Virus record (IMG/VR): IMGVR_UViG_3300032955_000003
Coordinates: 1 to 48,138 of that record
From: a virus
Lineage: Duplodnaviria; Caudoviricetes
Reading direction: 5' to 3' (one strand)
Length of the DNA: 48,138 nt
The notes under the pieces are model-generated. The model was not told where the DNA came from. It made no database searches and saw only the letters and a program-made list of their open reading frames with translations. The position numbers and the translations under genes are program-made. Shown here piece after piece: positions 87 through 47,512 of the stretch; positions within the stretch are counted from its first letter, which is position 1; the number at the start of each line of letters is the position of its first letter.

Positions 87-147
87 ATTTCCCTTTCATT
101 TTATCAGGCAATCATTCCTTCTGAACGTCTAGCGCGAGCGCTACGGC

Positions 148-246
148 GCAGCCGCGCAGTTACCCAAGGCACGTGCGTGCCAGGGGGGGTGCCTCGCGAT
201 GCGCGGAGCATACAATAGCTATGCTATTGAAAACAAAGCACTTATA
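148..246. repeat. left arm of an imperfect inverted repeat (partner 47857-47955)
   Basis: GCGCAGTTACC (154-164), a G-run+TG and TGCGCGGAGCA (200-210) all recur colinearly as reverse complements near the right end. Confidence 0.75.
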
Positions 247-250
247 GTGC

Positions 251-279
251 TTGCATTTGTGTGTGCCTTGTAGCATAAT
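251..279 (+). promoter_or_regulatory. sigma70-type promoter
   Basis: TTGCAT-17 nt-CATAAT, 9 nt before ATG 289 (possibly a near-leaderless mRNA). Confidence 0.55.
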
Positions 280-288
280 TTAGCTACT

Positions 289-729
289 ATGCCTGTCATG
301 GACCCCATCAAACTAGAAGCTCCCGCGTGCGTGTGTGGTCGGCTGCGCGATAAGATCCATTGTCCTTCTTGCGGAAGCTACGTCGTATATGCAAGATCAA
401 AGCGTCACAACACGCGTCGGACTGATCAATCAGGAAACGACGTCGAGTATCAAAGCTATCGTTGTCGAAGATGTGGAGGCTATTTTGATGATTGGGAATG
501 GCGAAACGCTTGTGGTGCTACGCCCTACGTCACAATGGCGCGACAACTAAAAGACATCAAAGACGAGCGAGAAGCTCGGCAAAAAATCTCACCGAAATAT
601 TCTCATCTTGAGATAAAATCATTTTTGGCACTTATCAAGATATGTAAAGAAAAAGGAATGGTAATGCCTCAAAACGTAATCGATAAACTAAGGTCAATTG
701 GTCTTGATGAGGAGGGGAATCCGTTATGA
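289..729 (+). CDS. Zn-ribbon protein
   Basis: 146 aa; CxC, CPSC and CRRC motifs. Confidence 0.75.
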   Translation: MPVMDPIKLEAPACVCGRLRDKIHCPSCGSYVVYARSKRHNTRRTDQSGNDVEYQSYRCRRCGGYFDDWEWRNACGATPYVTMARQLKDIKDEREARQKISPKYSHLEIKSFLALIKICKEKGMVMPQNVIDKLRSIGLDEEGNPL

Positions 730-983
730 CAACCGAAGCAGACAAGGCTCGTCGAGAGCATTTCAATAGTATCGTACTCGAAGCAACAAGCGAGCTTCTT
801 GATCTTCTCGACATGTTCACAACGAAGTACGATCTCTCGGTCGAAGAGCTCGTCTATATGTTCAACGTTCTCCAAGAAGGAGACTTGTTGTGTCGTTCGT
901 TTGCGAAGGCGAAGATCGCGCTTCAGTCTCAAATACTTCAGTCTCAAAAAACAAACGACTCCACGAAGGACGTCCCTAAATGA
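726..983 (+). CDS. hypothetical protein
   Basis: 85 aa; GAGGAGG RBS; ATGA coupling to the upstream gene. Confidence 0.7.
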   Translation: MTTEADKARREHFNSIVLEATSELLDLLDMFTTKYDLSVEELVYMFNVLQEGDLLCRSFAKAKIALQSQILQSQKTNDSTKDVPK

Positions 984-1120
984 CACCAATATTTATGATT
1001 CGCTTGTTGCAATACTACTATAAAAATCGATCTAGCGCTGAGACTCTCGCGCTGCTCGATGCAATAAAGGCGGTAATTTTAGACACCAACAATGGTGAGA
1101 AATGGGGTGCATCAAAATGA
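980..1120 (+). CDS. small hypothetical protein (46 aa, not in ORF track)
   Basis: MTPIFMIRLLQYYYKN...GASK; ATGA overlaps at both ends. Confidence 0.55.
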   Translation: MTPIFMIRLLQYYYKNRSSAETLALLDAIKAVILDTNNGEKWGASK

Positions 1121-1248
1121 CACCGTCATCTTTCCTAGGACTTATCGTCTTGATCCTGTGGCTCTCCGACTTCCCCGACGAAGTCGCGCCGCTTGTGCGA
1201 GCCTGCGGCTACGCCGCACTGGCGTGTTTGATAGGAGCGCTGCTGTGA
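1117..1248 (+). CDS. small two-helix membrane protein (43 aa, not in ORF track)
   Basis: MTPSSFLGLIVLILWLSDFPDEVAPLVRACGYAALACLIGALL; ATGA and GTGA coupling. Confidence 0.55.
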   Translation: MTPSSFLGLIVLILWLSDFPDEVAPLVRACGYAALACLIGALL

Positions 1249-1451
1249 CAGAACTTCCCTTCGCCCGCGTCGTCCTTGATGAAAGCTCTTCGAGCTTGCT
1301 CATCTATCACGACGGTCGTTACGGTACCCTTCGGGTAACGCAGGTGTCGCTGACGCCGTCGGCGCTAGCCGCGCTAAAGCGGGCGTTCGCCGAGGCGACG
1401 GCATCTACGATGCCGGAGTGCTTGTTGAAAGCAGACCTAAGGTCAAAGTAA
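1245..1451 (+). CDS. hypothetical protein
   Basis: 3' part of ORF 1092..1451; GTG start in a GTGA overlap with GGAG upstream. Confidence 0.5.
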   Translation: MTELPFARVVLDESSSSLLIYHDGRYGTLRVTQVSLTPSALAALKRAFAEATASTMPECLLKADLRSK

Positions 1452-1456
1452 ACTTT

Positions 1457-1681
1457 ATGAAGATAACAAAAGGATTTTCCAAAAACTCGGGATATCCCTA
1501 TGAGATAAAAGAATTCACTTCTTGGGAAGAAGTCAAAGAATCTGATCTCATCAGTAATGAAGACAAACTCGCTTTTCTTAATTATGGATGGGGAATAAAA
1601 CAGCATCATACTCAGCGAGAAAGACATTTAGGAATTACAAAAGTGAAGGATCATCCCAATGAGCGAGGATCTACTAGATGA
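1457..1681 (+). CDS. hypothetical protein (AT-rich)
   Basis: MKITKGFSK...; fills the gap in the operon. Confidence 0.55.
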   Translation: MKITKGFSKNSGYPYEIKEFTSWEEVKESDLISNEDKLAFLNYGWGIKQHHTQRERHLGITKVKDHPNERGSTR

Positions 1682-2135
1682 TCTCATGAATGGTGAGCCA
1701 ATGCTTTTGAATGGAGAACGAGTCAGGTTTGTTCCATCAAAAAGGAGCATCTCTCAAATGCCAAAGCCAAAGCCGAAGGCTAAAAAGCCACCGACGCAGT
1801 CGTCCTGGGCGTCCCGCACTTGTAAGACGTGTGGGAAACGCTTTTCTTTGAAAAAACAACTGGAAATTCACTCAACAACCCACACAAAAGATGCTCTCGA
1901 CGCCGCAGCGGAGTCCCTCAAGGAAAGCGGTACGCCGTCGCTAACGCGACAGCCGCAGCCATCGCCGACTGCGTCGCCTGACGCGTCAGCGTCAGCGTCG
2001 AACGTCTCAGCTCAGCTTTACTCTCAGTCTCAACATATTCGTGACCTCGAAAACATTCTGCGCGACCTAAACCACAGGTTTGCCGACGATGTCGTCACGG
2101 CGATCTCGATCTTGACGCGCAACTTCCGCGCCTAG
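1659..2135 (+). CDS. C2H2 zinc-finger protein
   Basis: CKTCGKRFSLKKQLEIHSTTH fits C-x2-C-x3-F-x5-L-x2-H-x3-H; alternative start at 1758 with a GGAG RBS. Confidence 0.75.
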   Translation: MSEDLLDDLMNGEPMLLNGERVRFVPSKRSISQMPKPKPKAKKPPTQSSWASRTCKTCGKRFSLKKQLEIHSTTHTKDALDAAAESLKESGTPSLTRQPQPSPTASPDASASASNVSAQLYSQSQHIRDLENILRDLNHRFADDVVTAISILTRNFRA

Positions 2136-2153
2136 CCCCAGACATGAGAGTTT

Positions 2154-2339
2154 GTGGCTAATTCTAAGGAAGGTTACGACTTGAGCTTACTGATAAGCTT
2201 TTTACGAACTGTCTTACTCACGATAGCGGTGGACATGATTGCCAAAGGCCATTTCTGGCAAGGATTCGTCGGAATTGGCCTATCGGAAGTACTTTTGTGG
2301 TTGGAATCTCATGCGACGGTAGAATCAGACGCGCCTTAG
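2154..2339 (+). CDS. small membrane protein
   Basis: 61 aa with two hydrophobic segments. Confidence 0.55.
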   Translation: MANSKEGYDLSLLISFLRTVLLTIAVDMIAKGHFWQGFVGIGLSEVLLWLESHATVESDAP

Positions 2340-2441
2340 CCCCGAAGGGGCTGTGCAAAACCTGTGCAAACCTGCGGTTTTTTTAACACCGCGTAAGTCG
2401 TTGAAGCCGCAGGCTTTACAGGCTGTGGAAAAGCCTTCGGC

Positions 2442-2471
2442 TTGACGTGGCTTCGCCACTACGTGTATATT
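2442..2471 (+). promoter_or_regulatory. sigma70-type promoter
   Basis: TTGACG-18 nt-TATATT in the intergenic region upstream of 2611. Confidence 0.55.
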
Positions 2472-2531
2472 TGTTACGGTCTTTACATAGTAACGCTTCA
2501 GCGCTAGCTTCGCTAACCTTGCTGCGCAACC

Positions 2532-2560
2532 GACCTAACTTGCTCCCAACAAGTTCAGTC
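2532..2560. promoter_or_regulatory. 29 bp dyad site, copy 1
   Basis: GACCTAACTTG-CTCCCAA-CAAGTTCAGTC. Confidence 0.6.
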
Positions 2561-2610
2561 TCCCTGTGCCGCATCGTTAAATCCAACGTAGCTGCGCTAA
2601 GGAGTCTCAA

Positions 2611-3126
2611 ATGCAAAAAGAGCAAGTGACTTTCGTCAACTACACCTCAACAAAGCCGGACGGTACATCGGAGCCTTTTCAGTACGTCTCTGAAAAGCAA
2701 CTCGAAGCAGCTCAGAAAGAAGCCGCGGCTGCGCCTGACGCCGACCGACCCACCATCACCGTTACCAAGCAACAGACCTTCGCCGTGACACGCGCTGACT
2801 CGATCGACGAGATCCTTCAGGTCGTGCCGAACGCGGACGTCGCTCTGGACTATTTCAACTACGGCTTCACGCTCGCGCAGCACAACGTCAAGCGCGAGCT
2901 GATGAAAGACGCAGACTGGCCCGGCGTGGACGGCGTCTACGACCTCGTGAACGACGTCCAGACTCCGAAGGAAAAGCGCGTAGCGGACCCGCTCGCGGCG
3001 TCACGTCGTAACCTTAAGGCTCTCTTCGCCAAGTTCAATCCTGGCGCGCCGGAGCCCACGGACGACGAGATCAACGCAGTGCTGGCACAGTTTGCCGGTG
3101 CGGCGCAGCCGCAGACGGCGGCCTAA
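2611..3126 (+). CDS. hypothetical protein
   Basis: 171 aa; AAGGAG RBS; strongly coding codon pattern. Confidence 0.85.
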   Translation: MQKEQVTFVNYTSTKPDGTSEPFQYVSEKQLEAAQKEAAAAPDADRPTITVTKQQTFAVTRADSIDEILQVVPNADVALDYFNYGFTLAQHNVKRELMKDADWPGVDGVYDLVNDVQTPKEKRVADPLAASRRNLKALFAKFNPGAPEPTDDEINAVLAQFAGAAQPQTAA

Positions 3127-3420
3127 GACGCTGCGCGTCAACGTTTGTCGGGTTGGGTACCTCCCGCGTAAGGGGTATCTCATCTGACAATTGCTCGAAG
3201 ATCAGGGGCGTCCGCACGGGACTCAGTCGACGCTCCTGCCTTCGTAGCTTCGCTAGCGAAGCTACTTTCATCCACACTCACGCAACGACGCAGTCGCGTG
3301 GACGTCACGGTCATGCGTCACACGCCGACGGCCAAGGCCGTTGTCCTCCATCGCCGTGAGTGTGGATGAAAGTCACTTCGTGGCTTCGCCATTTTGTGAA
3401 GCAAAAAAGGACTAGTCGAC
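3127..3420 (+). ncRNA. candidate structured non-coding element
   Basis: perfect 19 bp inverted repeat (3264-3282 / 3355-3373) enclosing smaller hairpins; 22 bp palindrome at 3244-3265; further stem CAGGGGCGTC/GACGCTCCTG; strand is inferred from flanking genes. Confidence 0.45.
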
Positions 3421-3424
3421 AAAG

Positions 3425-4414
3425 ATGAATCATTCATCTCCACCACCGTCGTGTTATCACACACTTGACGATGGAATAGACTGTCCTCGTTGTAGCGATC
3501 AAAAAATAAAATTTCCTCTTCATCGACAGGATGATTCATTGTATCAAATGATACATTGGAAGTGTCCTTGTGGATATCGTTACCAAGAGACTTTTCATGA
3601 CTTCTCTTTGAGGTCATTCAATAGAATGACAGCTACTCCCTCAAAGCTTCCTCCTATCCAGCTCGGTCCTGACTGGGCGTGTCCTGTCTGTAAAACTGTC
3701 TGTAAAATAGGAAAGAATTTCCCAGTACAAGGCAATAGACCTCTTCTACCAATCCAAAAATATCCCAAAGTATCTTGGGAATGTGCGTCTTGTAGCTACA
3801 CTTACGAAGAGCTTGAGTCAGACTGGAGCAAGAGAATTCATCTCCACAACGCTCGATTTACAAGTGCATTTTTTGGTGGAGCTAGCGCTTGGGCGACCAA
3901 CGCGAAAATACCTACATCTCCTCCTCCGACAGGAGCCCCAGACATGTCTCAAACAACCGTTCGCATCTGGTGGGATGCAAGCATTCAAGCCTACCGACTG
4001 TCGTCGTCTTACAACAAAGACTTTGTCGACGCTCTCAAGAATCTCATCCCGGCGTCCGACAGAAGCTTCGATCCTCAATCGAAGATCTGGACCTTCGTCG
4101 AAAAATGGCTTGGACCGATTCAGTCATTCTGCAAGACAGCTCACGTAGTGCCCACGCTAATCACTCGTCAGCAGGCCGAACAAGCCGCGCAAGCGAGGCC
4201 GTCGGCTTCGCCGTCTACGGGCGTCTTGATGACCGATCCGAACGACCGCGACTTACTCGACTTTGCCAAGCTTTTGACCTTCGAGTCCGCTCAAGCCGCC
4301 TACCGCCGCGCGGCGCTCGCTCTCCACCCTGACAAAGGTGGCGACATGGCTCAGATGAGCAAGCTGAACGCTGTATGGCAACGTTTGGAGAAAAATCATT
4401 GGAGGCAGTCGTGA
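3425..4414 (+). CDS. J-domain (DnaJ-like) protein with N-terminal tandem Zn-ribbons
   Basis: C-terminal AQAAYRRAALALHPDKGGD...MSKLNAVWQRL (J-domain helices II-III with HPD); possible internal start at 3944 with AGGAG. Confidence 0.8.
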   Translation: MNHSSPPPSCYHTLDDGIDCPRCSDQKIKFPLHRQDDSLYQMIHWKCPCGYRYQETFHDFSLRSFNRMTATPSKLPPIQLGPDWACPVCKTVCKIGKNFPVQGNRPLLPIQKYPKVSWECASCSYTYEELESDWSKRIHLHNARFTSAFFGGASAWATNAKIPTSPPPTGAPDMSQTTVRIWWDASIQAYRLSSSYNKDFVDALKNLIPASDRSFDPQSKIWTFVEKWLGPIQSFCKTAHVVPTLITRQQAEQAAQARPSASPSTGVLMTDPNDRDLLDFAKLLTFESAQAAYRRAALALHPDKGGDMAQMSKLNAVWQRLEKNHWRQS

Positions 4415-4881
4415 CTAAATCGATCCAAAATGAGGTAATCGACGCGCGAACCGCTTATCACAAAGCGTGGGGCGTGCCGATCTCCGCGGAGTATACGCGA
4501 TTTCTTCAAGCCGTCGGGGAAATGCAGACTAACCATGAACACTGCTTGAAAGTGCTGGAGCAATTTGAAAAGCTCAAAGACTTCTTACTAATCGTTGGCA
4601 ACGACGGGGCGAATAAAGCCGCTGTTGAAGACCTTCGACTGTCGCTGGATGAACTTGTTTCGGCGGTCGAGGATGGCCTTCGCCGCTGGACTGCCGGGGA
4701 TTACAACGGCATCAAGTCTAGTCTAATTTCGGCGACTCTGAGACAGGCGAAATTAGCGATGCAGAAATCGCAACCTTTGTTGCGCATTCAGGCAGATGGC
4801 CCGCAAAAAGACGAAAGCATTTATGAGCTATGTAGGAAGGCCGACGCCGCCCTCCGCAAAGCCCGCGGCGAGAAAGGTTAA
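4411..4881 (+). CDS. hypothetical helical protein
   Basis: ORF 4375..4881; likely GTG start at 4411 (GGAGG RBS, GTGA overlap). Confidence 0.65.
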   Translation: MTKSIQNEVIDARTAYHKAWGVPISAEYTRFLQAVGEMQTNHEHCLKVLEQFEKLKDFLLIVGNDGANKAAVEDLRLSLDELVSAVEDGLRRWTAGDYNGIKSSLISATLRQAKLAMQKSQPLLRIQADGPQKDESIYELCRKADAALRKARGEKG

Positions 4882-4902
4882 AAAATAAGAAGGAGCAGAA
4901 AA

Positions 4903-5676
4903 ATGACCGACCAAAACAAAGACAGACTAAAACCCCTTAGCCCTTCGGGCTTGGCCTCGCCAGCGAAGCCCAATCGCATCGGAGGCCTGACAGGCCTCGC
5001 CGGACGCATCGCTGCACAGCAGTCTGCGAAGCAGACAGCGTCTATCGACGCCGCGGCGCTGCCTCACCGCATCGCGTTGATGCTGGACTCCTCGGGGAGC
5101 ATGTCGGGAAGCGCCGCTGCGGGCGAGGACGACTACGTCACTGGTGGTCTATCGAAGATAGAGCGCCTCCGCGAAGCGGTGATGCATTTTCTCCAGTCTT
5201 GCGACTTATCCACGACGTCGCTTGCGATAGAGACCTTCGGTGCCGATGGCAACGAGCACCTAGTCCCGCAGTCTACCGACTACGGTCTTTTGATGATGTC
5301 CATTATGGGCCTTCAGTCCTACGGCGGCACGCCGATGGCGCAAGCGATGGCTTACGTCTTGGCACACTACGCGATTACTCGCGGTATCATCGTCTCCGAC
5401 GGCCAAGCCGATTCGTCGACGGCGGCGCTCGAAACTGTTACGCAGTATGCCGAGGCACAGGTGCCTATCGACTGTGTCCACATTGGCTCTGCGAGTCACG
5501 GTGAAGACTTGCTTCGCAAGATCGCGGAGCTCACCGGGGGAATGTACATCAAGTTCACGAACGTGAGTAACTTCGCCAAAAGCTTCGCATACTTGACGCC
5601 CGCGAAGCGGAGCGAACTGATGTTACACGACGGCTCCGAGAGAGCGCGCCTGCTAGGTGCCACGGAGGTGAAATGA
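4903..5676 (+). CDS. von Willebrand factor A (vWA) domain protein
   Basis: MIDAS motif LMLDSSGSM, GGTP, IIVSDG, and LLRKIAELTGG. Confidence 0.9.
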   Translation: MTDQNKDRLKPLSPSGLASPAKPNRIGGLTGLAGRIAAQQSAKQTASIDAAALPHRIALMLDSSGSMSGSAAAGEDDYVTGGLSKIERLREAVMHFLQSCDLSTTSLAIETFGADGNEHLVPQSTDYGLLMMSIMGLQSYGGTPMAQAMAYVLAHYAITRGIIVSDGQADSSTAALETVTQYAEAQVPIDCVHIGSASHGEDLLRKIAELTGGMYIKFTNVSNFAKSFAYLTPAKRSELMLHDGSERARLLGATEVK

Positions 5677-5677
5677 G

Positions 5678-5860
5678 ATGAATCAATCACTATCATCAAT
5701 TCAGCTTCATCTTACTGAATACAACGGAGTGTTCAAGAAACAAGACAAAAAAGGAAACTGGCGCGATGTCTATAAAATTGGTAACGCTAATATGGCCTTA
5801 GATATCGCCAGGCTTCTTCAAAATCTTGGACACAAAGTCAAAGTTCTGGAGTCAAAATGA
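5678..5860 (+). CDS. small hypothetical protein (AT-rich)
   Basis: 60 aa; GGAGG RBS; ATGA coupling downstream. Confidence 0.6.
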   Translation: MNQSLSSIQLHLTEYNGVFKKQDKKGNWRDVYKIGNANMALDIARLLQNLGHKVKVLESK

Positions 5861-6174
5861 TGGACTCATCGAAGATGATCCCTTGCGTCCTACTCCCCGG
5901 CTCGGCGCTCCGACGCATCCGCGTCACCTGTCGCTGTCAACGAAGTTGGATCGAGGAGTTCCCCGCCGAGCTAGCTCACTGCACCGACATCGCTCCATTC
6001 TTCGAATGCACTTCGTGTCACACGTGCTACGCACTTATCTCGAACGTCTTGACGCGCGTCGAAGACGGTCTTCTAACGAAGTCCATCGAGGCTTCGCCTC
6101 TGGCGTCGTCGTCAGACGACAGATCGAAGATCTCCGACAAGTCGTTTGTTCATGACAAGGGAGGAAACGCCTGA
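5857..6174 (+). CDS. Zn-ribbon protein
   Basis: CRC...CTSC motifs; coupled start. Confidence 0.65.
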   Translation: MMDSSKMIPCVLLPGSALRRIRVTCRCQRSWIEEFPAELAHCTDIAPFFECTSCHTCYALISNVLTRVEDGLLTKSIEASPLASSSDDRSKISDKSFVHDKGGNA

Positions 6175-6718
6175 CGGCGCAGCCGTGCCTCGCTTACGCT
6201 ATCTCAAAGACCGTAGCTTCGCTAACGCACAGTCGCTATCGCGACAGCTAAAGCTATCAATGCAAGAAGACGAGGAGGAAAAAGTCGATGACATCGATCT
6301 CAAAAATAACGAAGTCACTGAGCCTACGGCTCAAAAAGGCTGGTGGTCTAACGACGCAGTCATTGCGTCTCTTCCTGACGACAAGCTTAGCTTGGCTATC
6401 GAACGTTACCGCGGCATTCTTGACATCTGTCTTGCAGAGCGTCTGCGACGCAGCCAGACGCCTACGGCCTCGGCGTCAAAGCGAAGCTTTTCCTCGACGC
6501 GTAGCGTCAGCGAGTTCGACATTACCGAAGGTAGGCGAGTCTGGCGACGCGTGCCGACTGGTGAGCTAAAGCCTGCGTCGCCACAGCGACGGCGAAGCCG
6601 TGGGAGCGGTTCAAGGAAAGCATCTTCGATGCAGTCAAAGTTAACGTTTGAGCAGACGCTCGAAGCATTGAAAATGCTTAACGATATCGTCAAGAAGAAG
6701 GACGAGACAGAAAAATGA
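6146..6718 (+). CDS. hypothetical protein
   Basis: 190 aa; start uncertain (6146, 6152 or 6260); weak resemblance to the C-terminal half of 8517..9251. Confidence 0.6.
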   Translation: MFMTREETPDGAAVPRLRYLKDRSFANAQSLSRQLKLSMQEDEEEKVDDIDLKNNEVTEPTAQKGWWSNDAVIASLPDDKLSLAIERYRGILDICLAERLRRSQTPTASASKRSFSSTRSVSEFDITEGRRVWRRVPTGELKPASPQRRRSRGSGSRKASSMQSKLTFEQTLEALKMLNDIVKKKDETEK

Positions 6719-6891
6719 CAACAATGCAAAAAATGTCTATCGAGATACTTTCTCTCGGAAACGACACTTTCAATCTTTTCATCAAAAGATTTAAAGGTCG
6801 TAAAAGGCAATCTTACCTCAAGATTACCAAGTCTGCGATTGACAAGATCATCAATCGGGAGCTTAAAGAGATCTTGAAAGAGATCAAATGA
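6715..6891 (+). CDS. small basic protein (58 aa, not in ORF track)
   Basis: MTTMQKMSIEILSLGNDTFNLFIKRFKG...; ATGA overlaps at both ends; AT-rich. Confidence 0.55.
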   Translation: MTTMQKMSIEILSLGNDTFNLFIKRFKGRKRQSYLKITKSAIDKIINRELKEILKEIK

Positions 6892-8006
6892 ATCCGCCAA
6901 CCGACATCCAAAAGACCGTTATTACCACGATCGTGACGAAGCTAGCCGCCCTCGGCCACGTCGTGACATGGCACGAGCCGATCTCGTCGGGCCCGCTCAT
7001 CACAACGTATCGTTTCTTGCCAAAAAATTCTTCCCGCGTAGCGCAGATAGCTTCGCTATCTAGCGACATCGCCTTGGCGCTCAGCGTCGAAGACGTGATG
7101 ATACAACGTATCGCCGGCGAAGCCTACATCGGCGTCAGCGTTCCAAACGCTACGCGTGAGCTCGTCCTCTGGCGTAACTTACTGTCCCCGCCGCCTTCGG
7201 CGGTAGCCATCCCGCTCAATTTTGGCGTCGACCAGTACGGTCATCCCTACATTGACGACCTAGTTACGCTACCGCATCTCCTGATCGCCGGCTCGACCGG
7301 CAGTGGCAAAAGTGTTTTCCTACGCAGCATCATCGCGTCAGCGATGTTTTGGCGCTCGCCGTCGCAGCTTCAATTCATTCTCTCCGACACCAAACTCGTA
7401 GAGCTCGGTATCTTCACAGGAGCCTCTCACATGACGTTCCTTGAGCCTGCCACGTCCGCCTTAGCGACATGCGAACGCATGGACTGGCTTATCGAAGAGA
7501 CCGAGAGACGCTTGCGTCTCTTCGAGACAGAAAAGGTACATAATCTACATGAACACAATCAAAGATTTGGTCATCAACTACGATCTCTTATCCCATACAT
7601 CGTTCTTATCATCGACGAAGTCGCGGACATTTTTCCTGAAGATGACCGAGCTCAATCGAAGATATCCTCAGCAAAGCTGGGAAAGATTGTACAAAAATCC
7701 CGCGCCAGCGGTATACACGTCATCGCTGCTACACAACGACCATCGGTTAACATTGTGTCTGGTAGCATTAAATCTAATTTTCCCGCAAGAATCTCTTTTC
7801 GCCTCCCTAGCGAGACTGACTCCCGGACAGTGCTTGGCTCCGGTGGTGCCGAGCATCTGCTCTCCCGCGGCGACATGTTCTTCTCCTCTCCCTCCCGTCC
7901 GAGCCTCTTGAGGCTCCATTCGGCGTTCGCCACGGACGACGACATCAAATACTGCATCGATGCTGTGGGCATGATGAATCGCTCAAAACAACATGTCCTG
8001 GACTAA
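6888..8006 (+). CDS. FtsK/SpoIIIE-family translocase motor domain (no membrane anchor or gamma domain)
   Basis: GPLITTY, PHLLIAGSTGSGKS (Walker A), IVLIIDEVAD (Walker B), RASGIHVIAATQRPS, RISFRL...SRTVLG...GAEHLL.RGDM. Confidence 0.93.
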   Translation: MNPPTDIQKTVITTIVTKLAALGHVVTWHEPISSGPLITTYRFLPKNSSRVAQIASLSSDIALALSVEDVMIQRIAGEAYIGVSVPNATRELVLWRNLLSPPPSAVAIPLNFGVDQYGHPYIDDLVTLPHLLIAGSTGSGKSVFLRSIIASAMFWRSPSQLQFILSDTKLVELGIFTGASHMTFLEPATSALATCERMDWLIEETERRLRLFETEKVHNLHEHNQRFGHQLRSLIPYIVLIIDEVADIFPEDDRAQSKISSAKLGKIVQKSRASGIHVIAATQRPSVNIVSGSIKSNFPARISFRLPSETDSRTVLGSGGAEHLLSRGDMFFSSPSRPSLLRLHSAFATDDDIKYCIDAVGMMNRSKQHVLD

Positions 8007-8180
8007 CATCAACACGAAGTGTCACTGTCGCAGACTTTACGTCCTTGAGCGTTTCTCGATGATCTGGGGAACGATTGTTTGGTATCGGTACACGTACCGT
8101 GCGGGACACAGAAGCTGTGTGCAACCTGTGCAAAACTAGGCTTTGCCTGTAACCCATTGAAAACAAGGCACTTATATGTG

Positions 8181-8210
8181 TTTACAAGCCCGCCTGCGGC
8201 GCGTTACACT
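8181..8210 (+). promoter_or_regulatory. sigma70-type promoter
   Basis: TTTACA-18 nt-TACACT, preceded by the same 21-mer found upstream of the promoter at 251. Confidence 0.5.
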
Positions 8211-8263
8211 CAGCTTCGCTTGTCAGCATCATCCTCCCTCAGATTCTCAAAGCTTTAGCTTTT

Positions 8264-8476
8264 ATGGACCGAGCAAACGTCTCCGTGACGGGATTTTCCT
8301 TGGCGAAGCCGCTCCTTGCGGAGCTCCGTCACCGATATCCACCGCAAGAGCGCTCACGTGTCGTGAATGCTTTGCTGGAAGCCTACTTTGCAGGACGAGT
8401 TCTCGACCGCCAAGGCCGACGCCTTGTCATCCCGACGCGCAAGCCCAAGACGCTACGCGTGGCGGTAACGACTTAA
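8264..8476 (+). CDS. ribbon-helix-helix-like small DNA-binding protein
   Basis: VTGFSLAKPLLAELRHRY...RSRVVNALLEAYF resembles the RHH strand-helix-helix pattern. Confidence 0.55.
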   Translation: MDRANVSVTGFSLAKPLLAELRHRYPPQERSRVVNALLEAYFAGRVLDRQGRRLVIPTRKPKTLRVAVTT

Positions 8477-8516
8477 CTTGCGGAGAGAAAGTTCAGTCTA
8501 AAGGAGGAAAAACGAA

Positions 8517-9251: not shown

Positions 9252-9277
9252 ACGAAGACATAATAGAAGAGGATACA

Positions 9278-10875: not shown

Positions 10876-10879
10876 AAAA

Positions 10880-31398: not shown

Positions 31399-31454
31399 TG
31401 AAATGTCCTTTCTTGCTACTGTCTTTTCCAACAATCAAATATCATTCGATATCG

Positions 31455-31535: not shown

Positions 31536-31543
31536 ATGAACTC

Positions 31544-39084: not shown

Positions 39085-40983
39085 TTACATGACCCTCCCT
39101 GACTGCGCTGCAGGCGGAGTCATCATAGGAAGAGTCCCTCCTGGAGGCAAGCCTTGAAGCTGTCCCTGAGCCGCTTGCGGCTGAGCCGAAGGCTGCGGCG
39201 CAGCTTGCTGAGGAGGTTTCACCTCAGGCTTCGGCGCGAGCGTATCGACTTCGTCATAGCCAAAATGACGATACACGGCTTGCATAAAGATGTTCTGCGA
39301 CAAGATCGCCTTCGTGATGTAGTTACGAACTTCCTCCGGAACCATTGGATTCGCCGCGGCGGTGAGCATCTGTGTGATGCTTTGATGATAGCGTTCGCTG
39401 ACGCCGGCGAGCATCAAATCGTTTTGCTTCTCGACCTCGCGGTTGATGCTAGCCGTACTGGCGTAGACAGGCAGCGTGATCTTCCTGTCGCGCATCGCGT
39501 CGAGAGCCTGCTCAATAAGCGCGCCTTTTTGGCCGAAAAGCGCTTTGCGCTCGCCGAGGCCAAACTCCGCAAAGAGCGAGCACAACAAGTTGCCTAGCTG
39601 AGTGTGAGCGTAGCGGATGTCTGTGATGTTAAGATCGGTACGAGTATTACCTTCCTGCATCACACTCAGCGTACCCATCGCCGTGTAGATACCGCGCTTT
39701 GTCTGGGTGCCCGACCCGGCGCCCTGCATCGGAGCGCTAACTCCGCTGCGCTTGTCGGCGTATTCGAGGGTCATTCTCTCGGAGTCGATTTCGCCCGCCA
39801 CCGGAGTCCCGAACTCGAGAGCCTCGATTTCGCCTTCTTTGCCCGGCAACATTGCTCCGGGATAAATCCTGTAACCTTTGTTCAGCGGAGAGTCAGGATC
39901 AACACGCCACATTTTCATATTGGCGATCGTTGAGTTGTCACGACGACCGTTGTGAATCTGACTGAGCTCTTCCTGAATCGGCAACATCACCTCAGCCATT
40001 CCCATTCCAGGAAACATGTCGTCTCTATAAAACAGACGAGCGACCGTGAAGACCTCGCCAGGATAGTAGTAATAATAAGATCGCAAGATCTGGTTGGTCT
40101 TTTCGTGGTACGTCGTGATAAGCTTGACGTAGCGACTACCGTCACGATATTTGTAATGACACTCGTAGAGATCCCACTCCGCCCAGCCATAGCCCGAGGC
40201 CGTGACGGCCTTAGCGTCCATCTCTTTCTGAGCCTGGACTACGTCGGGAGACGTCCTATCGGGAGATCCAAGAACGATCTTAGTGGCCATCTTGTCGTAG
40301 ATGCCTTTGAAAGACCGCTCTTCGAGCTCCTCACGCTGAAGCCGCACGATGTGATACTTAAAGTCCATCGCGTCGACGGTGGGGACAGACACCGGATACT
40401 TGAAGTCTTCGTAACGAACTTTCTCCGGCCGAGGCCCGTCGTAGAGGGTCTTCGAGACGAAGTCTGGCTTCGCCGAGCCATCACCTGAAGATATCGCCTG
40501 ATCTATCACGGACTTTGTCCATGGCGTCTTCAAGACGCCAGTGCCTAGCTTGATCGTGTCCGAGAACCAGTCCCGCTCGACGCGATACAGATCAAGCTCT
40601 TCTTTCTCTAGAGCCGCCCACTGAAGAAACTCTTCGAGCGAGTCTTTCAGTCCCGGAGGAGCCTCGTTTGAAAAGTCTCCCATTAGCCTCGACACCCACA
40701 GCGGCCGCGTCTTAAAAACCGCGGCCATCACTCGGGCGAGCAGCGTATCGCTATGAATCGCGGCGATCGGCGTCACGAGGTTCGAGGCATTGTGCCAAGG
40801 CCATTCACGAATCTCCTCGGCAGGCTTCGCCTCGTAGATTTTGCGCCAGCGGACTACGCCGTTAAGACCGTGAAGCTGACTTAGTCCCTCGCGCAGCGCG
40901 ACAGTCTTTTTCCGCAGGAAAGCGCGCAGGCGCATGTCTCCATCGGAGCCAGGCGACATCGTGAATGGGATAGGCTTAATCAA
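39085..40983 (-). CDS. portal protein (podovirus-type)
   Basis: 632 aa; WHNASNL, GTGVLK, FPGMGMAE, SGVS...G; Gln/Pro-rich tail; position after terL. Confidence 0.85.
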   Translation of the reverse strand: MIKPIPFTMSPGSDGDMRLRAFLRKKTVALREGLSQLHGLNGVVRWRKIYEAKPAEEIREWPWHNASNLVTPIAAIHSDTLLARVMAAVFKTRPLWVSRLMGDFSNEAPPGLKDSLEEFLQWAALEKEELDLYRVERDWFSDTIKLGTGVLKTPWTKSVIDQAISSGDGSAKPDFVSKTLYDGPRPEKVRYEDFKYPVSVPTVDAMDFKYHIVRLQREELEERSFKGIYDKMATKIVLGSPDRTSPDVVQAQKEMDAKAVTASGYGWAEWDLYECHYKYRDGSRYVKLITTYHEKTNQILRSYYYYYPGEVFTVARLFYRDDMFPGMGMAEVMLPIQEELSQIHNGRRDNSTIANMKMWRVDPDSPLNKGYRIYPGAMLPGKEGEIEALEFGTPVAGEIDSERMTLEYADKRSGVSAPMQGAGSGTQTKRGIYTAMGTLSVMQEGNTRTDLNITDIRYAHTQLGNLLCSLFAEFGLGERKALFGQKGALIEQALDAMRDRKITLPVYASTASINREVEKQNDLMLAGVSERYHQSITQMLTAAANPMVPEEVRNYITKAILSQNIFMQAVYRHFGYDEVDTLAPKPEVKPPQQAAPQPSAQPQAAQGQLQGLPPGGTLPMMTPPAAQSGRVM

Positions 40984-42741: not shown

Positions 42742-44429
42742 CAGTTATGTCTCGCCATTCCATAGGAATACGGCGTCCCGATGCGCTGCATCGCTTCTTC
42801 GTTCGCCTGCATCAGCGCTGACTGAGTCGCCCAGTCGACAGGCTTGCGTAGCATCTGAGGAGCGTACGCGAACACATCGATCTGATCGCAAAAGCGTCCC
42901 CGGGGAAACGTCTGATATTCCGTGACGAAGTCTTGATGTTTGCGCTGGACCCAAAGCTGTCCGCGCTCGGCGATCGGGCCGATGACGTTTCTGATACGCC
43001 ATTCTTTTTTTCGAGAAAGCGTTCCGTCAGGAGCCTCGACTTCGCCTTTGAGCTCATCGACGCGCAGCGTCTGGCCTTTCAGTCCGCCGAGGAACTCGAT
43101 GTGATGTTTCACATAACGCTGAGCGCCTACGGTCTCGCAGCCGACTCGCCGGAGCTTAAACTTAGCGGCCATCTCAAAGATTTTGTTATAAAAAACGTCG
43201 TAAGACGTTCCCTGCGCCCAGGCGTCGAGGACGTAGTAGTCACCTTTGTCGCTCTCGCCTACGACGAGAATCGCGTGGCGACACCGGCCTGTGCCAGCCT
43301 GACCGCTGTGATTGGGATCTACGACCTCGGCCAAGGCCAAGTGGCCTATCTTGATGTCCTCGCGAACAATCCCGTCACGCTCTTCGTGACGTATAATCAT
43401 GCGACCTTGCTCGTCGTGAGCAAGCTCAAAATAGTTCAGCCACTCGACTTGAAAGTCGGCATCTTCCGGTGCGCAGGGCGAATTTAAAAATTGACAACTA
43501 AAGTTGTAGCTTCCAAGGCGCTTGCGAAGCTTTTCGAGCTTCTCGAAGCTAAACTCTTCAGGAAAGATCGGCACCCCCGAAGGATGCGCATCACAGCACC
43601 CTCCCATCGCGCTATGCGACGCCACGCGAAACCACGGCTCGTGTTCACGAATGTGGCTATTGAGGTCGGTGTATCCCCACCGATTTCCGATGATAAGCTC
43701 GTCGTTTTCTTGCTTGTTGTTGTCGCCCATCTCGAAGATGCCTACCAGAAGCTGGTGGTACTCGATGGACTTGTCCATGATAGACGGCGACTCAGTCGCT
43801 TTGCGACCAATCAAGTCATCTTCGATGATAAGGCCGGTGTAGTGACGAGACTGGACCGCAGAGCCTACTCCAAGAAAATCAAACGTACCTTCACCATGAG
43901 CACCACCGGCGGTATTCTTCGGGCGTTTGACGTGCAGCGAGTAGTCTGTCCATGTACACGACGTATCTGGCAGGGTCTCCGGAAAGAGCGAGCGGTAAAC
44001 CGCGTTAGACTCGTAATGCCAGCGAATCCTTCGACCGAGCTTCGCCGCGTTGGTGATGTTTTCGGAGATGAGTAAATTGCGTAGGTCTGGATTGTGTACA
44101 TACAACATCCAACGAATAAATTCGTTCGAGTAGCCGAGCTGGAAAAACTCGTCGATGTCTTGCTGCGAAATCGGCAGCACTCGCCACATCGTCAAGCCCT
44201 CTGGACCGCAGGTGCTTTTGAAATGATCCCGCGGAATCTCGATAACATCTTTCAGATGTTTGCGCTCCAGCGTTCGACAGAACGGCTCGTGAAACGACTC
44301 CGTCAGGCGCTTGCGTCCAAGGGCGTGCTTGATGAAGTAGAAAAGATTCCCGAGACAGTTGACGCGCAGCGCTCTCATGAGCGCCGCAGGCGGCAAGCCC
44401 TTCAGCGAGATAGGCTGAAAACGTTCCAT
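42741..44429 (-). CDS. terL: terminase large subunit
   Basis: IPRDHFKST (Walker A), IIEDDLI (Walker B), IGNRW, FSCQFLNSP, VVDP, FPRG..CDQID. Confidence 0.9.
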   Translation of the reverse strand: MERFQPISLKGLPPAALMRALRVNCLGNLFYFIKHALGRKRLTESFHEPFCRTLERKHLKDVIEIPRDHFKSTCGPEGLTMWRVLPISQQDIDEFFQLGYSNEFIRWMLYVHNPDLRNLLISENITNAAKLGRRIRWHYESNAVYRSLFPETLPDTSCTWTDYSLHVKRPKNTAGGAHGEGTFDFLGVGSAVQSRHYTGLIIEDDLIGRKATESPSIMDKSIEYHQLLVGIFEMGDNNKQENDELIIGNRWGYTDLNSHIREHEPWFRVASHSAMGGCCDAHPSGVPIFPEEFSFEKLEKLRKRLGSYNFSCQFLNSPCAPEDADFQVEWLNYFELAHDEQGRMIIRHEERDGIVREDIKIGHLALAEVVDPNHSGQAGTGRCRHAILVVGESDKGDYYVLDAWAQGTSYDVFYNKIFEMAAKFKLRRVGCETVGAQRYVKHHIEFLGGLKGQTLRVDELKGEVEAPDGTLSRKKEWRIRNVIGPIAERGQLWVQRKHQDFVTEYQTFPRGRFCDQIDVFAYAPQMLRKPVDWATQSALMQANEEAMQRIGTPYSYGMARHN

Positions 44430-44484
44430 TTTTGCTACGCAAAGAAGTCGGGAGGGGAGGAGATGAAGCTAAAGCTTAACTTCG

Positions 44485-44760
44485 TTACTCAACATAAACC
44501 AACACCGTTCCGGCGTCAAGAGTATCGAGGATCAGGCCGTCGATCCAAGAGACTTTCCCTGAGCGCACCTCGCTAAGATCAAACGCGCCTGTCGGCGCCC
44601 AGACAATCCGCCCGTTCTGGTCTTTCAAAATACACACCTGTCCCTGAGCGCTGTATCCAGACCACTCAAAATGTGCGGTCTTGATCCATCCCTCCCAAAG
44701 GACGACGCTAGAACTGGGAGTATCAAGCTTCCACGGACGTCCTGCAACGTCGTTAGCCAC
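44485..44760 (-). CDS. hypothetical (structural?) protein
   Basis: 91 aa, beta-rich. Confidence 0.65.
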   Translation of the reverse strand: MANDVAGRPWKLDTPSSSVVLWEGWIKTAHFEWSGYSAQGQVCILKDQNGRIVWAPTGAFDLSEVRSGKVSWIDGLILDTLDAGTVLVYVE

Positions 44761-45001
44761 GTTTTGAGGCTCCTTTTTTTACCTCGCGGTATCGCGGAGC
44801 TCCGAGTCTCTGCATCTGTCGCTCAAGTATCACGATGCGTTTTTCGAGATCGGGATCATGCTCCGACGCCAGCCACAGAGCTCCTTTTGCTTGACGCTCG
44901 ACCTTCAGAAAACGTTCCCAAGGAACTTTCTTGACACGTTTTGTCGTTTTTGCCTTTGGCAGAGACATCTGTGAGCTCGTTCCCACGGCTGACGCCGTCA
45001 C
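44753..45001 (-). CDS. hypothetical basic protein
   Basis: 82 aa; within the late operon. Confidence 0.55.
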   Translation of the reverse strand: MTASAVGTSSQMSLPKAKTTKRVKKVPWERFLKVERQAKGALWLASEHDPDLEKRIVILERQMQRLGAPRYREVKKGASKRG

Positions 45002-45011
45002 AGCGAAGCTG

Positions 45012-45557
45012 TTAGCGACCTAAGATATGACGCTGTAAATGATACAAAACACCCGACACGGCTTCGTCTTTCGAGTGCGGAGCACTCGTTTGCCAACCGC
45101 ACTTGAGGCATACGCCTCTAAAGAGGAAATATGTTTTGTCCTGAGACTCCTGAACAAAGACGTAGTCCAGGACATTGTCCTTGGTGACGTTGCCATTGAG
45201 CTTGAATACAGGCTGCGTCTGCGCCGAGACAACGTTGACTTTCTCCGATATCGAAGATATTGTCATCCTTGAGAGGTCCGGCGTCGCGGCGATGTGAGGA
45301 GCAAGCTGGGCGTCGCTGAGCGATGGCTTCGCCAGCGGAGCTGGTGGCTTCGCAGAAGCCGTAGGCTTCGTCTGACCTTCGGTCCCTGGGATGACTCCTG
45401 TGATAATCTTGGGATTGGGATCGACCAGCGAAGCTGGGGCGGCTGTGACAACTGGATTGATAGGCGTCTTGTTTTGCTCTTCGAGCTTCGCCGCGGGCGA
45501 CGCCGCAGGCGCGGCTGTCGCGGCATTCGGTGGCGCTGGTTTGTTTACGACTGGCAT
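45012..45557 (-). CDS. Pro/Ala-rich protein with a C-terminal C2H2-like finger
   Basis: CLKCGWQT...HLQRH; GGAGG RBS. Confidence 0.7.
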   Translation of the reverse strand: MPVVNKPAPPNAATAAPAASPAAKLEEQNKTPINPVVTAAPASLVDPNPKIITGVIPGTEGQTKPTASAKPPAPLAKPSLSDAQLAPHIAATPDLSRMTISSISEKVNVVSAQTQPVFKLNGNVTKDNVLDYVFVQESQDKTYFLFRGVCLKCGWQTSAPHSKDEAVSGVLYHLQRHILGR

Positions 45558-45558
45558 C

Positions 45559-46056
45559 TCATGCCTCCGCTGGTTTTGACGTCGAGATCGGGGCTCTCAG
45601 TAAAACGTCCCGCGTAGCGTCTGCTTCTTTCACCAAGGTGTCTAAGACCGAGTTCGGCAAGTCCGGCCGTGACGCTGTCGCGTTGGCGTCTTCGCTCCGC
45701 GCGGTGCTTCGTGTAAAGATTCGGCGTGGGTCACGGTCCAAGACCTCGCGCGCCGCGGCAAGCTGCATTCGCAGGTCTTTTTTCTGCTTGACAGCATCGA
45801 TAAGCGCCTTCATGGCGTCCGGGACGGCGTCTTCGAGCTCTTTCGTGAGCTTCGCTCGCTCTGCAAGAGAGGCGTCCATTTTGTTAAGATTGTTCCGGCG
45901 GACGTCATCTTCGATGAGTTTGTATTCTGGGCAAGCCAAGACACGCTGCAAGCCGCCGTAGGACATGTTCATGTCCAAGGCGATTTGCGTGGCCTTGCGC
46001 CCAGCGATAATCATCCGGGCGATCTGTTCGGCTTTGATCTTGACTTGACTATTCAT
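45559..46056 (-). CDS. putative terminase small subunit (N-terminal HTH)
   Basis: IARMIIAGRKATQIALDMNMSYGGLQRVL (HTH); QLAAAREVLDR; first late gene. Confidence 0.7.
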   Translation of the reverse strand: MNSQVKIKAEQIARMIIAGRKATQIALDMNMSYGGLQRVLACPEYKLIEDDVRRNNLNKMDASLAERAKLTKELEDAVPDAMKALIDAVKQKKDLRMQLAAAREVLDRDPRRIFTRSTARSEDANATASRPDLPNSVLDTLVKEADATRDVLLRAPISTSKPAEA

Positions 46057-46361
46057 CTACTCGCAGAGCCAAGACACCTTCGGTGTCTCCATCCTCGACG
46101 TCTTCGCCACGCCTAAGACTTCCTCACCGAAGGTGTCCCTTCCCAGGCCAGCCGAAAGGCTGCTTCGTTTCGCGTCACTTCTCGCTTGCTTATTTGACGT
46201 TAAGGCTATCACGCCAGGGGCGCGGAAGTCAAGCTAAAAAATGTTTGTAACATCTTTCTATCTAACTGAAAACAAAGCTTTTACAAAAGCTTCGCTTTTA
46301 AGCGTTTACAACATTCTTTTAGGTGCTACGTACCTACTTGACACAGCGTAGCTGTGGCTGT

Positions 46362-46390
46362 GACTAGACTTGCTCTTAGCAAGTACAGTC
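46362..46390. promoter_or_regulatory. 29 bp dyad site, copy 3
   Basis: GACTAGACTTG-CTCTTAG-CAAGTACAGTC. Confidence 0.6.
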
Positions 46391-46733
46391 TTGTATGCTA
46401 AAGCATTATGACAAGATCAATTCAAAAAGACGGAAAAAATTTTTCGAGTGGCCTCGACCATCTCAGTCTCAATCTCAATTTTTGGCCCCGGCGGGCATGC
46501 CTTCGGCATGAAATGGCCGTCGGACTGCAGCTGCAGGCGTGACACTACTAGTGTAAGCGTTGTGTTAGGTTTACCTGCAACCGTGGACTGTAGCAACCGC
46601 TCATTATATGGATAGCGGCGCTACAGGGCAAAGCGGATGGCGTGCGCAAGCGCCAACATATACAGCTACGCTGGGGCTGCGAGCCCATGCTAACAGCACG
46701 GCTGTCAAGAGCTAACGCTATGTGGAGGAGCTA

Positions 46734-46955
46734 ATGCAACAAAACAGTCCACACAGCAAATGGAGACGTCGGCGTATAAAAGTCTACACGGTGTGTCCAT
46801 GTTGTAATGAAAAAGCATGGCAAAGGCCTGTAACCGCAAGGCAGCTGACGCCAAGCAATACACGTACAGAGGAAAGTTACAATCTGTATTACTGTACAAC
46901 ATGTGGCGAGGCCTATGTCACTGATCCAACCTACAATGATTACGTGCAGCGTTAG
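46734..46955 (+). CDS. Zn-ribbon protein
   Basis: CPCC...YCTTC; GGAGGAG RBS. Confidence 0.65.
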   Translation: MQQNSPHSKWRRRRIKVYTVCPCCNEKAWQRPVTARQLTPSNTRTEESYNLYYCTTCGEAYVTDPTYNDYVQR

Positions 46956-47083
46956 CTGCTGCACATAGCGTTAGCTGAAGCTTTGTAATCCGCTCGTCTG
47001 TGGCATGGGTGCTACACTGGCTGCGCCAGGCTGCGCCAGTGACTTGCGTAGCAAGTGTAGCATCTAGCTACAGGAGGATTACA

Positions 47084-47512
47084 ATGACCGAGGAAACAAA
47101 GAAAGCTATCGCTATCCTTAGCAGCGATGCTATGGATGAGTTTGGCAGGACGGAGTCCGAGCGCACAGTTGTGCTAGACAGTGTCTTCGCCGACAAGATC
47201 AACACGGAAGTCGGTGACGGCGGGCATGACACTTACGTGGACGCGCTGAACTATATCTTGACGAGAGGCTTCGCCGAGATAGAGCGCTCACGCGCATCGC
47301 AGGCGAAGGCCGAGGCGGCACGCAAAGACGCCAAAGCGTTAGCTACGCTGAACGACGTTCTGGCCAAGACTCCCACGCTCGCAGCCAATCCGCAAGCTTT
47401 GCTTGCGACGCTGAAAGCGCTAGGCGCCTTGACATCACAGGTAGCGACTGTACTGAAAGCATTCGGCGTAAACGCGCCGACGGCTGAAGCCGACAAGCCA
47501 AAGGCTGCCTAG
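47084..47512 (+). CDS. hypothetical protein
   Basis: AGGAGG RBS before ATG 47084; Ala-rich and helical. Confidence 0.75.
   Translation: MTEETKKAIAILSSDAMDEFGRTESERTVVLDSVFADKINTEVGDGGHDTYVDALNYILTRGFAEIERSRASQAKAEAARKDAKALATLNDVLAKTPTLAANPQALLATLKALGALTSQVATVLKAFGVNAPTAEADKPKAA

Follow-up and report, generated by a model that had tools for sequence, protein, structure and literature searches.

Gene content and organization

The window is the whole 48,138 nucleotide stretch of DNA analysed here, which comes from an uncultured tailed phage. Its plus strand encodes an exonuclease (positions 9465-10538), a Sak4-like single-strand annealing protein (11238-12059) and a family A polymerase whose gene is split by an insert (16490-17218) that was likely acquired recently. 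In brief, the first part of the split gene encodes a uracil-DNA glycosylase and the 3'-5' exonuclease half of the polymerase (15321-16490), and the second part encodes the polymerase half (17219-18769). A DUF3987 protein with the predicted fold of an MCM-like helicase is encoded at 18589-19782, also on the plus strand, and a primase domain was not found in it. N4-like and SP15-like phages carry UDG-fused family A polymerases together with a DUF3987 helicase (PMC13697223, PMC4889955). The window resembles this module in encoding UDG-exonuclease, PolA, DUF3987, Sak4 and exonuclease, and differs from it in having no fused primase domain.

The DUF3987 protein is labelled a primase in PHROGs. Because its predicted structure is that of an MCM-like helicase and the fold matches listed include no primase, we agree with the first-pass annotation that the window has no recognisable primase. 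A scan of 65 ORFs found no primase or RNA polymerase that could read hairpins, and no virion RNA polymerase was found among the window ORFs. A fold search with the HARP-like/J-like protein as query found nothing at E <= 0.001, and two conserved early proteins could not be assigned to a family with the ESM Atlas.

Hairpin excess in the window

Hairpins were counted on both strands when the stem, including the closing pair, was at least 4 bp. The window holds 190 dispersed C-GNA-G (or C-TNC-G) hairpins. Their stems are 4-8 bp long, they lie between positions 147 and 47812 on both strands, and they are not copies of one repeat. A Markov model of order 5 predicts 14.6 +/- 3.4 (maximum 23 in 60 simulations), a model of order 4, which preserves all 5-mers such as CGAAG, predicts 13.7, and permutation of the arms among the 777 C-GNA-G cores gives 15.9, a 12x excess. 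In coding DNA we found 146 hairpins, against 14.65 +/- 3.8 after synonymous shuffling within genes (maximum 28 in 100 shuffles) and 14.8 when the shuffle also preserved the next base (maximum 25 in 100 shuffles). The excess is real and large.

The first-pass annotation had proposed an enrichment of GNA loops beyond codon usage and word frequencies, and its claim survives both the Markov and the codon-preserving shuffles. All eight hairpins that it cited as examples lie exactly where it had placed them. It had counted more than 30 copies of the heptamer GCGAAGC or GCTTCGC in the first 16.2 kb; these words occur 34 and 43 times in the window, respectively, and 35 of the 77 fall within that region. 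A search of mostly open-access literature found no published report of such a signature.

The GNA loop lies on the plus strand in 93 hairpins and on the minus strand in 97, and relative to the genes 76 are sense and 75 antisense. Genes (42.2 kb) contain 147 hairpins and the 5,928 non-coding bases contain 43, so that density is higher between genes. The densest early region is at positions 1-10000, where 67 of 198 cores have a stem of at least 4 bp. A second dense region at 44000-48138 (28 of 71 cores) includes the intergenic stretch separating the divergent late and early genes. Examples are a 7 bp GAA hairpin within the exonuclease gene (9622-9638, plus strand), an intergenic 7 bp hairpin with its GAA loop on the minus strand (46072-46088), and the longest GNA hairpin, 8 bp with a GTA loop, in frame within the GH114 gene (30978-30996, plus strand). 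The insert in the polymerase gene is hairpin-poor (1 of 14 cores), as are the GH114 and tail-spike genes on the minus strand (30325-33526; 1 of 12 and 3 of 14 cores). The major capsid gene (35830-36780, minus strand) is hairpin-poor in the window, with 1 of 18 cores, but not across the clade (15 of 188).

Loop rule and stems

Among GNA cores, a stem of at least 4 bp is found for 108 of 326 with a GAA loop (0.33), 30 of 130 with GTA (0.23), 39 of 176 with GCA (0.22) and 13 of 145 with GGA (0.09). The GNA class recognised in the first-pass annotation stands, but two further classes had been missed: C-AAA-G triloops (32 of 215 cores) and C-GNNA-G tetraloops (63 of 503, 6.2x). The remaining C-NNN-G loops reach 143 of 2964 (0.05), which is still a 2.5x enrichment. 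The share of cores with stems is 0.245 for a C-G closing pair, 0.056 for T-A and 0.041 for G-C; T-GAA-A cores give 14 of 120. The RNA-type cUUCGg hairpin was found at 0 of 72 cores in the window. The rule for loop and closing pair is thus of DNA type and agrees with the Hirao-type mini-hairpin criterion, GNA or GNNA closed by C-G. The published order of melting temperatures (GAA > GGA > GCA > GTA) is not followed, as GGA is second in that order and last here; it ranks higher in relatives G008, G009 and G013 than in the window. The DNA parameter set of ViennaRNA assigns identical energy to all 64 triloops.

The stems saturate, with a cap at about 5 bp. For GAA loops the probability of extension over successive pairs is 0.67, 0.77, 0.64, 0.43, 0.28 and 0.23, and no triloop stem exceeds 8 bp, a length attained by only four. 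Extension of 4 bp stems drops with rising GC (0.50, 0.54, 0.47 and 0.34, from small numbers). The outer stem trimers use 50 of the 64 possible words, the commonest being found in 12 of 190 hairpins. This diversity and the equal use of the strands bear out the earlier suggestion that structure is favoured and not a linear site. No flank trimer survives correction for 2,816 tests, and spacing is clumped, not regular.

Distribution among relatives

The excess recurs in 15 of 16 relatives, at 2.2-9.4x, and these 15 make up a single clade. The one relative that lacks it, G014, is basal and has the same replication genes. Across homologous genomes the trait spans 0.8x to 12x, which makes the question testable by comparison. 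We found no excess in 13 other DUF3987/PolA phages, with or without a UDG domain, nor in N4, T7, phi29 and 66 distant viral loci. Since the excess is absent from G014 and from these other DUF3987/PolA phages, the trait does not track the UDG-PolA/DUF3987 module, contrary to what had been envisaged.

The sites turn over between relatives (shared cores 5 of 75 versus 24 of 340), with no positional conservation. Rare and core genes of the clade have an equal hairpin share, 0.072 each, which weakens a reading by amelioration. A left-right asymmetry in genome coordinates was not found, and the arm bias described below follows the GNA strand. We found no close cultured relative, the best phage matches having <30% identity, and no close strain in collections, where the nearest loci have ~65-76% DNA identity. 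A terminase scan gave no match.

Substitutions in relatives

Substitutions were polarised in 17 triplets of relatives, not all of them independent, giving 7,817 changes; these rate tests describe relatives with 2-5x enrichment and not the window's own lineage. Losses of stem and closing pairs numbered 64 against 103.6 expected (0.62), with 31 against 52.9 on the 5' arm and 33 against 50.6 on the 3' arm. Three pseudo-pairing controls gave 77 losses against 77.0 when pooled, and one of them taken singly gave 0.76. Gains of GNA hairpins were as expected (25 versus 26.8). Nine roughly independent triplets gave 38 losses against 60.9 (p = 0.001) and 13 gains against 12.0, and one larger triplet showed no reduction (17 versus 15.4). 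Every mutation class was reduced in stems. Unpolarised pair counts, which suggested doubled gains and unchanged losses, were set aside because their controls were unmatched for context and the polarised tests gave the opposite.

At fourfold sites both arms are pulled well above 0.25 (0.74 and 0.65), and the pull persists where the partner is an invariant residue. Synonymous changes creating a GNA loop within an existing stem numbered 20 against 12.1, and changes towards GNA stood at 1.47 in stems, not clearly above the 1.17 found without a stem. A comparison of loop optimisation at invariant residues gave 91 of 248 versus 128 of 515 in one contrast, from a small, pseudo-replicated sample in which other contrasts were null or reversed.

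Origin of the hairpins

We suggest, with a probability of roughly 0.45, that the hairpins are kept by weak selection in single-stranded DNA, and favour this over template switching and mutational shielding. The excess, the loop rule, the cap at about 5 bp, the limits of the clade, the turnover and the reduced loss of stem pairs are established observations; the benefit to the phage is what we infer. From its gene content (helicase, PolA, exonuclease and Sak4, with no primase found), the phage may replicate by strand displacement and annealing, and both strands would then be single-stranded for part of a primase-less replication. The exposed strands would snap into mini-hairpins, and these putative structures, by resisting exonucleases and binding SSB poorly, may protect or organise the strand. 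A review states that only GNA triloops form mini-hairpins, that these resist 3' exonuclease, and that a tandem mini-hairpin fragment binds SSB poorly (PMC13037366). With both strands exposed, weak selection would be likely to keep hairpins. Each would confer a small benefit, like codon bias, at hundreds of interchangeable sites, so that synonymous and tolerant amino-acid sites would drift into paired states while single sites come and go.

Weak selection is supported by the reduced losses on both arms, the saturating stems, the pull at fourfold sites, the DNA-type loop rule and the lack of sense bias. Several observations count against it. The loop G and A, which selection for stability should protect, are no better conserved in stems (33 changes versus 36.5) than outside (109 versus 127.6), G-T wobbles are not preferred over A-C mismatches (125 versus 124), the pull at fourfold sites in the clade is stronger on the 3' arm than on the 5' arm, and GGA ranks last. 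The larger triplet without reduced loss and the control at 0.76 point the same way, and hairpin density is uncorrelated with protein conservation (rho -0.02, 23 genes). Furthermore, the replication mode is read from gene content, and the signal is missing from G014 even though its replication genes are the same.

The first-pass annotation had proposed a dispersed structural code. In a fuller form of this reading, the clade would have evolved hundreds of sequence-free mini-hairpins on both strands, placed at synonymous and tolerant coding positions, which a phage or host protein would recognise by shape. They might act as priming or loading points for replication without a primase, guard displaced strands against host nucleases and sensors, or mark self. 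We consider such a code doubtful. A role as priming or loading sites found no positive support, there being no flanking motif, clumped spacing and sites unshared with relatives.

In template switching, the phage polymerase or its repair machinery would occasionally fold the growing 3' end back as a mini-hairpin and copy one arm from the other, and stems would accumulate without benefit by this quasi-palindrome route. The process is well established for T4 and E. coli (PMC5941160), and a stable fold-back hairpin is extended by human Pol theta (PMC13037366), which belongs to the family A polymerases (PMC12040184). We regard it as an unlikely origin here, since the footprint that had been proposed is mostly contradicted by the substitutions in relatives. 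There is no rise in total gains, losses are reduced on either arm, and long perfect stems are absent. Among 384 distinct comparisons of homologous stems with a GNA loop, none showed a loop inversion, while 46 otherwise differ at both loop ends, and adjacent double changes completing stems show no overall excess (44 of 487, versus 40, 35 and 18 for pseudo-pairings). Some support remains. In run X2, four of nine isolated variant events in a near-identical strain touch a triloop stem of at least 4 bp (chance 0.15 each, p = 0.037; a cluster of eight changes at 32996-33065 excluded), and a double change at 39627-39628 completes a 5 bp stem, on contigs of depth 2-6 that may contain errors. A further run, X1, may be the origin of the window and does not count as independent, and the listed runs included no RNA run. 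The loops are unconserved, wobbles are not preferred, and seemingly recently acquired genes are hairpin-poor. Fourfold sites in the clade show a bias to the 3' arm (539 of 994, against 423 of 953 on the 5' arm), with the same direction in a second analysis, and gains in the stable-loop set favour the 3' arm (37 versus 24.5, against 21 versus 22.7 on the 5' arm). Gain ratios are 1.30-1.51 on the 3' arm and 0.58-0.93 on the 5' arm, but the window leans the opposite way: where its sequence departs from the clade consensus, the 5' arm is over-represented (1.33) and the 3' arm is not (1.01).

Mutational shielding, in which paired bases on exposed single strands mutate less, would make hairpin states act as sinks that build up neutrally. 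It agrees with the rates in stable-loop hairpins (stems 0.66 of expectation, loops 1.00, gains near 1) and with the faster change at the loop ends of other C-G-closed stems (74 versus 53.1), and by arithmetic 0.62 over three pairs gives about 4x, as in the relatives. However, protection on one strand at most halves a rate, whereas the extension probabilities in the window imply, by the same kind of arithmetic, a ~4-5-fold bias per pair. Moreover, C-to-T on the GNA strand, the change expected to drop if shielding acts against deamination, is not reduced in stems (25 versus 28.0), and it is G-to-A that is reduced (12 versus 26.2). We judge shielding improbable.

RNA structure or terminators, codon usage, restriction-site bias, a mobile repeat (REP, RPE, GC cluster) and an assembly artefact are largely refuted and together very improbable: density is higher between genes and some intergenic hairpins, though few, may have a role in transcription, but there is no sense bias, no cUUCGg and no Rfam match, the tenfold excess survives codon shuffles, 4-mer palindromes in the window are at expectation or mostly below, 50 different stem trimers are used and flanks are not shared, the reading frames show no disruption and the trait recurs in independent genomes.

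A dsDNA phage whose coding sequence obeys single-stranded DNA folding rules is unexpected, and a genome favoured to fold when single-stranded would be an undescribed structural layer over the protein code. If selected, the hairpins would constrain the whole genome through shape, much as codon bias or Chi sites do through sequence, and would point to a novel step in replication or defence evasion in a large uncultured clade. If mutational, they would record in nature, and with unusual strength, mutation that depends on hairpins, and would provide a polymerase for studying it.

Comparison with known systems

Lavi et al. (2018) attributed a genome-wide excess of short perfect inverted repeats to template switching (PMC5941160). 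As in the passages describing those repeats, the hairpins are dispersed, unrelated, above chance and conserved in their arms between relatives. The same passages concern E. coli non-coding DNA, with arms of at least 5 bp separated by as much as 70 bp, and state no loop rule (PMC5941160), whereas the window has a roughly tenfold excess inside genes, DNA-stable loops of 3-4 nt closed by C-G, the cap at about 5 bp, a restriction to one phage clade and neither inversion nor multi-base signatures.

GNA and GNNA mini-hairpins are described from the origins of phages G4, St-1 and alpha3, from RSF1010 ssiA and from the N4 virion RNA polymerase promoters, as few fixed cis sites in conserved context, and the same review puts mini-hairpin frequency in natural DNA below chance (PMC13037366). 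The window has the chemistry of loop and closing pair and the similar stem length described for these sites. Unlike them, its hairpins number hundreds and have no flanking motif or positional conservation; the N4 genome itself has no significant excess (6 versus 3.3, counted over 50 kb of its 70 kb).

HIP1, Chi and DNA uptake sequences are likewise many interchangeable intragenic sites, shaped at synonymous positions and turning over between relatives. These are linear words, whereas in the window the stem sequence is free and only the pairing, the loop and the closing pair are kept.

Size and rules of the hairpin excess

We found a stem of at least 4 bp, closing pair included, on 190 of the 777 C-GNA-G cores (triloop plus closing pair) on the two strands of the window, against 14.6 +/- 3.4 expected under a fifth-order Markov model and 15.9 with arms permuted among cores. 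In coding DNA only, 146 hairpins compare with 14.7 expected from synonymous shuffling and 7.5 when codon order is shuffled. The excess is about tenfold, and words or codons do not account for it; the enrichment claimed in the first-pass annotation thus persists under codon- and word-controlled shuffles. All eight hairpins listed there were found in the sequence, and GCGAAGC and its complement occur 77 times, 35 of them within the first 16.2 kb, where a hand count had given more than 30.

By loop, the stem fraction in the window is 0.33 for GAA, 0.23 for GTA, 0.22 for GCA, 0.15 for AAA, 0.12 for T-GAA-A and 0.09 for GGA. The cTTTAg/cTAAAg tetraloops carry stems in 13 of 30 cases, the top fraction among window loop classes, and are weak in most relatives; cGNNAg, cCNNGg and gCTTGc tetraloops are likewise enriched in the window. 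AAA triloops and these raised tetraloop classes are stable in DNA. For triloops, a GNA rule for stable DNA mini-hairpins is given in the available text of PMC13037366.

The closing pair is predominantly C-G. Pairing is elevated over about four positions outward of the core and is random past the first mismatch, and no triloop stem in the window exceeds 8 bp. The outer stem uses 50 distinct trimers while loop and C-G closure are retained, which bears out the proposal that structure rather than a linear site is favoured. GNA loops lie 93 times on the plus and 97 times on the minus strand. Spacing is clumped (CV 1.35 vs null 0.94-1.26; widest gap 2.4 kb), with density peaks in the first 10 kb and last 4 kb and minima in the polymerase insert, GH114, tail spike and capsid genes.

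Distribution among phages

Fifteen relatives were taken whole, two of them partial at 62% and 89% completeness; in 14 the excess is 2.2-8.3-fold (p <= 2e-4 each), and an 11.8-kb fragment, G016, shows 9.4-fold (p <= 2e-4). The basal relative G014 has 0.8-fold despite the same replication genes. In a quick tree from portal, terminase and capsid, the 16 enriched genomes form one clade (SH-aLRT 100) with G014 outside, and the three strongest are not each other's nearest relatives. Four capsid relatives without this polymerase gave 0.6-1.4-fold, and 13 other records found via DUF3987 or related genes, ten of them covered by their first 39-40 kb, gave 0.2-2.0-fold (smallest p 0.02). Hairpin counts were not significant in N4 (50 of 70 kb), T7 or phi29. 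Across 66 distant UDG-bearing viral loci there were 162 hairpins vs 156.7 expected, with p < 0.001 in none, and 90 kb of bacterial contigs held 29 vs 22.3. One 51-kb contig binned as bacterial (G022 C125, L378-L380), with a capsid match at 33%, is mildly enriched, 26 vs 15.1.

The trait is confined to one subclade, its strength is quick to vary, and its presence does not go with the polymerase module; G014 and the DUF3987-type records speak against the suggestion that it tracks UDG-PolA/DUF3987. A host effect may lie behind the excess.

The signature is real, strong and clade-specific, and apparently new: in the openly accessible main-text literature we came across no phage described as having a loop-specific hairpin excess throughout its genome. 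It is a variant form of the short inverted-repeat excess described for bacteria in the accessible part of PMC5941160; the other nearest kind is the individual mini-hairpins known from origins and N4 promoters. According to the available text of PMC12019632, invertiaDB covers only arms of at least 10 bp and so would miss these hairpins. UDG-fused polymerases are described in PMC13697223, whose available text nowhere uses the word hairpin.

Turnover and origin of the hairpins

Hairpin sites are not kept in place between relatives. Where the window has a hairpin and only its core is required to be common to a relative, the relative has a stem in 5 of 75 cases; for shared cores without a window hairpin the count is 24 of 340. 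These unshared sites, and the lack of any flanking motif found around the hairpins, lend no positive support to the proposed priming or loading sites; for a priming role, G4-type origins offer a precedent (PMC13037366, available text). Compensatory stems occur in 19 of 99 same-loop comparisons of divergent pairs.

In 17 polarised triplets, drawn from lineages less enriched than the window, stem and closing-pair losses number 64 vs 103.6 expected, equally on both arms; pooled pseudo-pairing controls lost 77 vs 77.0, and gains were 25 vs 26.8. Nine roughly independent triplets gave 38 losses vs 60.9.

We rank first, at a probability of about 0.45, weak selection that would keep hairpins forming in single-stranded DNA, since the two-armed conservation, the stem-length cap and the effect size in the window all fit. 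Their benefit is suggested by gene content and by in vitro properties in the available text of PMC13037366. Against clean selection, loop ends are not conserved, wobble pairs are not favoured, the pull on the 3' arm somewhat exceeds that on the 5' arm, gains appeared raised in an earlier unpolarised count, and in the low-depth X2 run of a sister strain 4 of 9 variant events hit stems, one being a double change. Another X2 observation, at depth 2, is a variant at 21734 by which a 6-bp stem changes between a non-GNA and a GNA loop.

The X2 events in stems and the 3'-arm pull lend some support to the proposed template-switch footprint. Among relatives its usual marks are lacking: loop inversions were absent and stem-completing double changes were not in excess. 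We regard template switching as a less likely source of the stems. That paired bases are simply shielded from change agrees with change rates in relatives but mismatches both the window's magnitude, by our own arithmetic from stem-extension data, and the C-to-T count, and is unlikely. RNA-level or artefact readings are highly improbable, with stems on 0 of 72 cUUCGg loops in the window and GNA loops 76 times sense and 75 antisense to genes. Selection and these alternatives can act together.

Genome and replication genes

The window resembles a nearly complete genome of a podovirus-like phage, with early genes on the plus and structural genes on the minus strand. Replication genes encode exonuclease, Sak4, ParB-methylase, UDG-exonuclease, PolA and DUF3987, plus an SSB-like candidate that is our own reading without a family match. 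Judged from sequence, the exonuclease motifs look intact. Among the 65 ORFs scanned we found neither a primase nor an RNA polymerase nor an integrase; for DUF3987 (model pLDDT 87.9) all 41 fold matches listed are MCM helicases, in agreement with the available text of PMC4889955, so the earlier remark that no primase is recognisable stands.

A 730-bp insert (16490-17218) separates the exonuclease and polymerase domains of the polymerase gene; it has ORFs of its own, e.g. 16638-16997, and no Rfam intron match. The gene is a single long frame in three relatives (G006, G010, G012) and split in 11 others. Motif B of PolA (17219-18769) has His at the position that we take to be Phe/Tyr762, as in G014 and a Desulfofustis phage; in the window, motif A has Trp instead of the usual Arg. 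The polymerase end and the DUF3987 frame share 180 bases (18589-18769), an overlap that may be real, as DUF3987 homology begins near residue 5. The first UDG motif is degenerate in G014 (C1 35191-36291), the one clade-adjacent genome that lacks the excess, is retained in enriched genomes, and is also intact in other phages without the excess.

A two-domain protein (3944-4414), conserved in 16 of 17 genomes compared, has a weak HARP-like N-domain (Pfam E 0.018, short of the cut-off) and a J-like domain whose HPD is invariant. HARP domains bind DNA junctions; the protein alone does not explain the trait, since G014 has it too. A Cpn10-like co-chaperonin (19779-20255), a vWA protein (4903-5676) and a stand-alone FtsK (6888-8006) are common across the clade. 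The DUF1937 gene with its neighbour (10525-11236) and an HNH gene (14842-15324) have 39% GC and nearly no GNA cores, and therefore look recently acquired.
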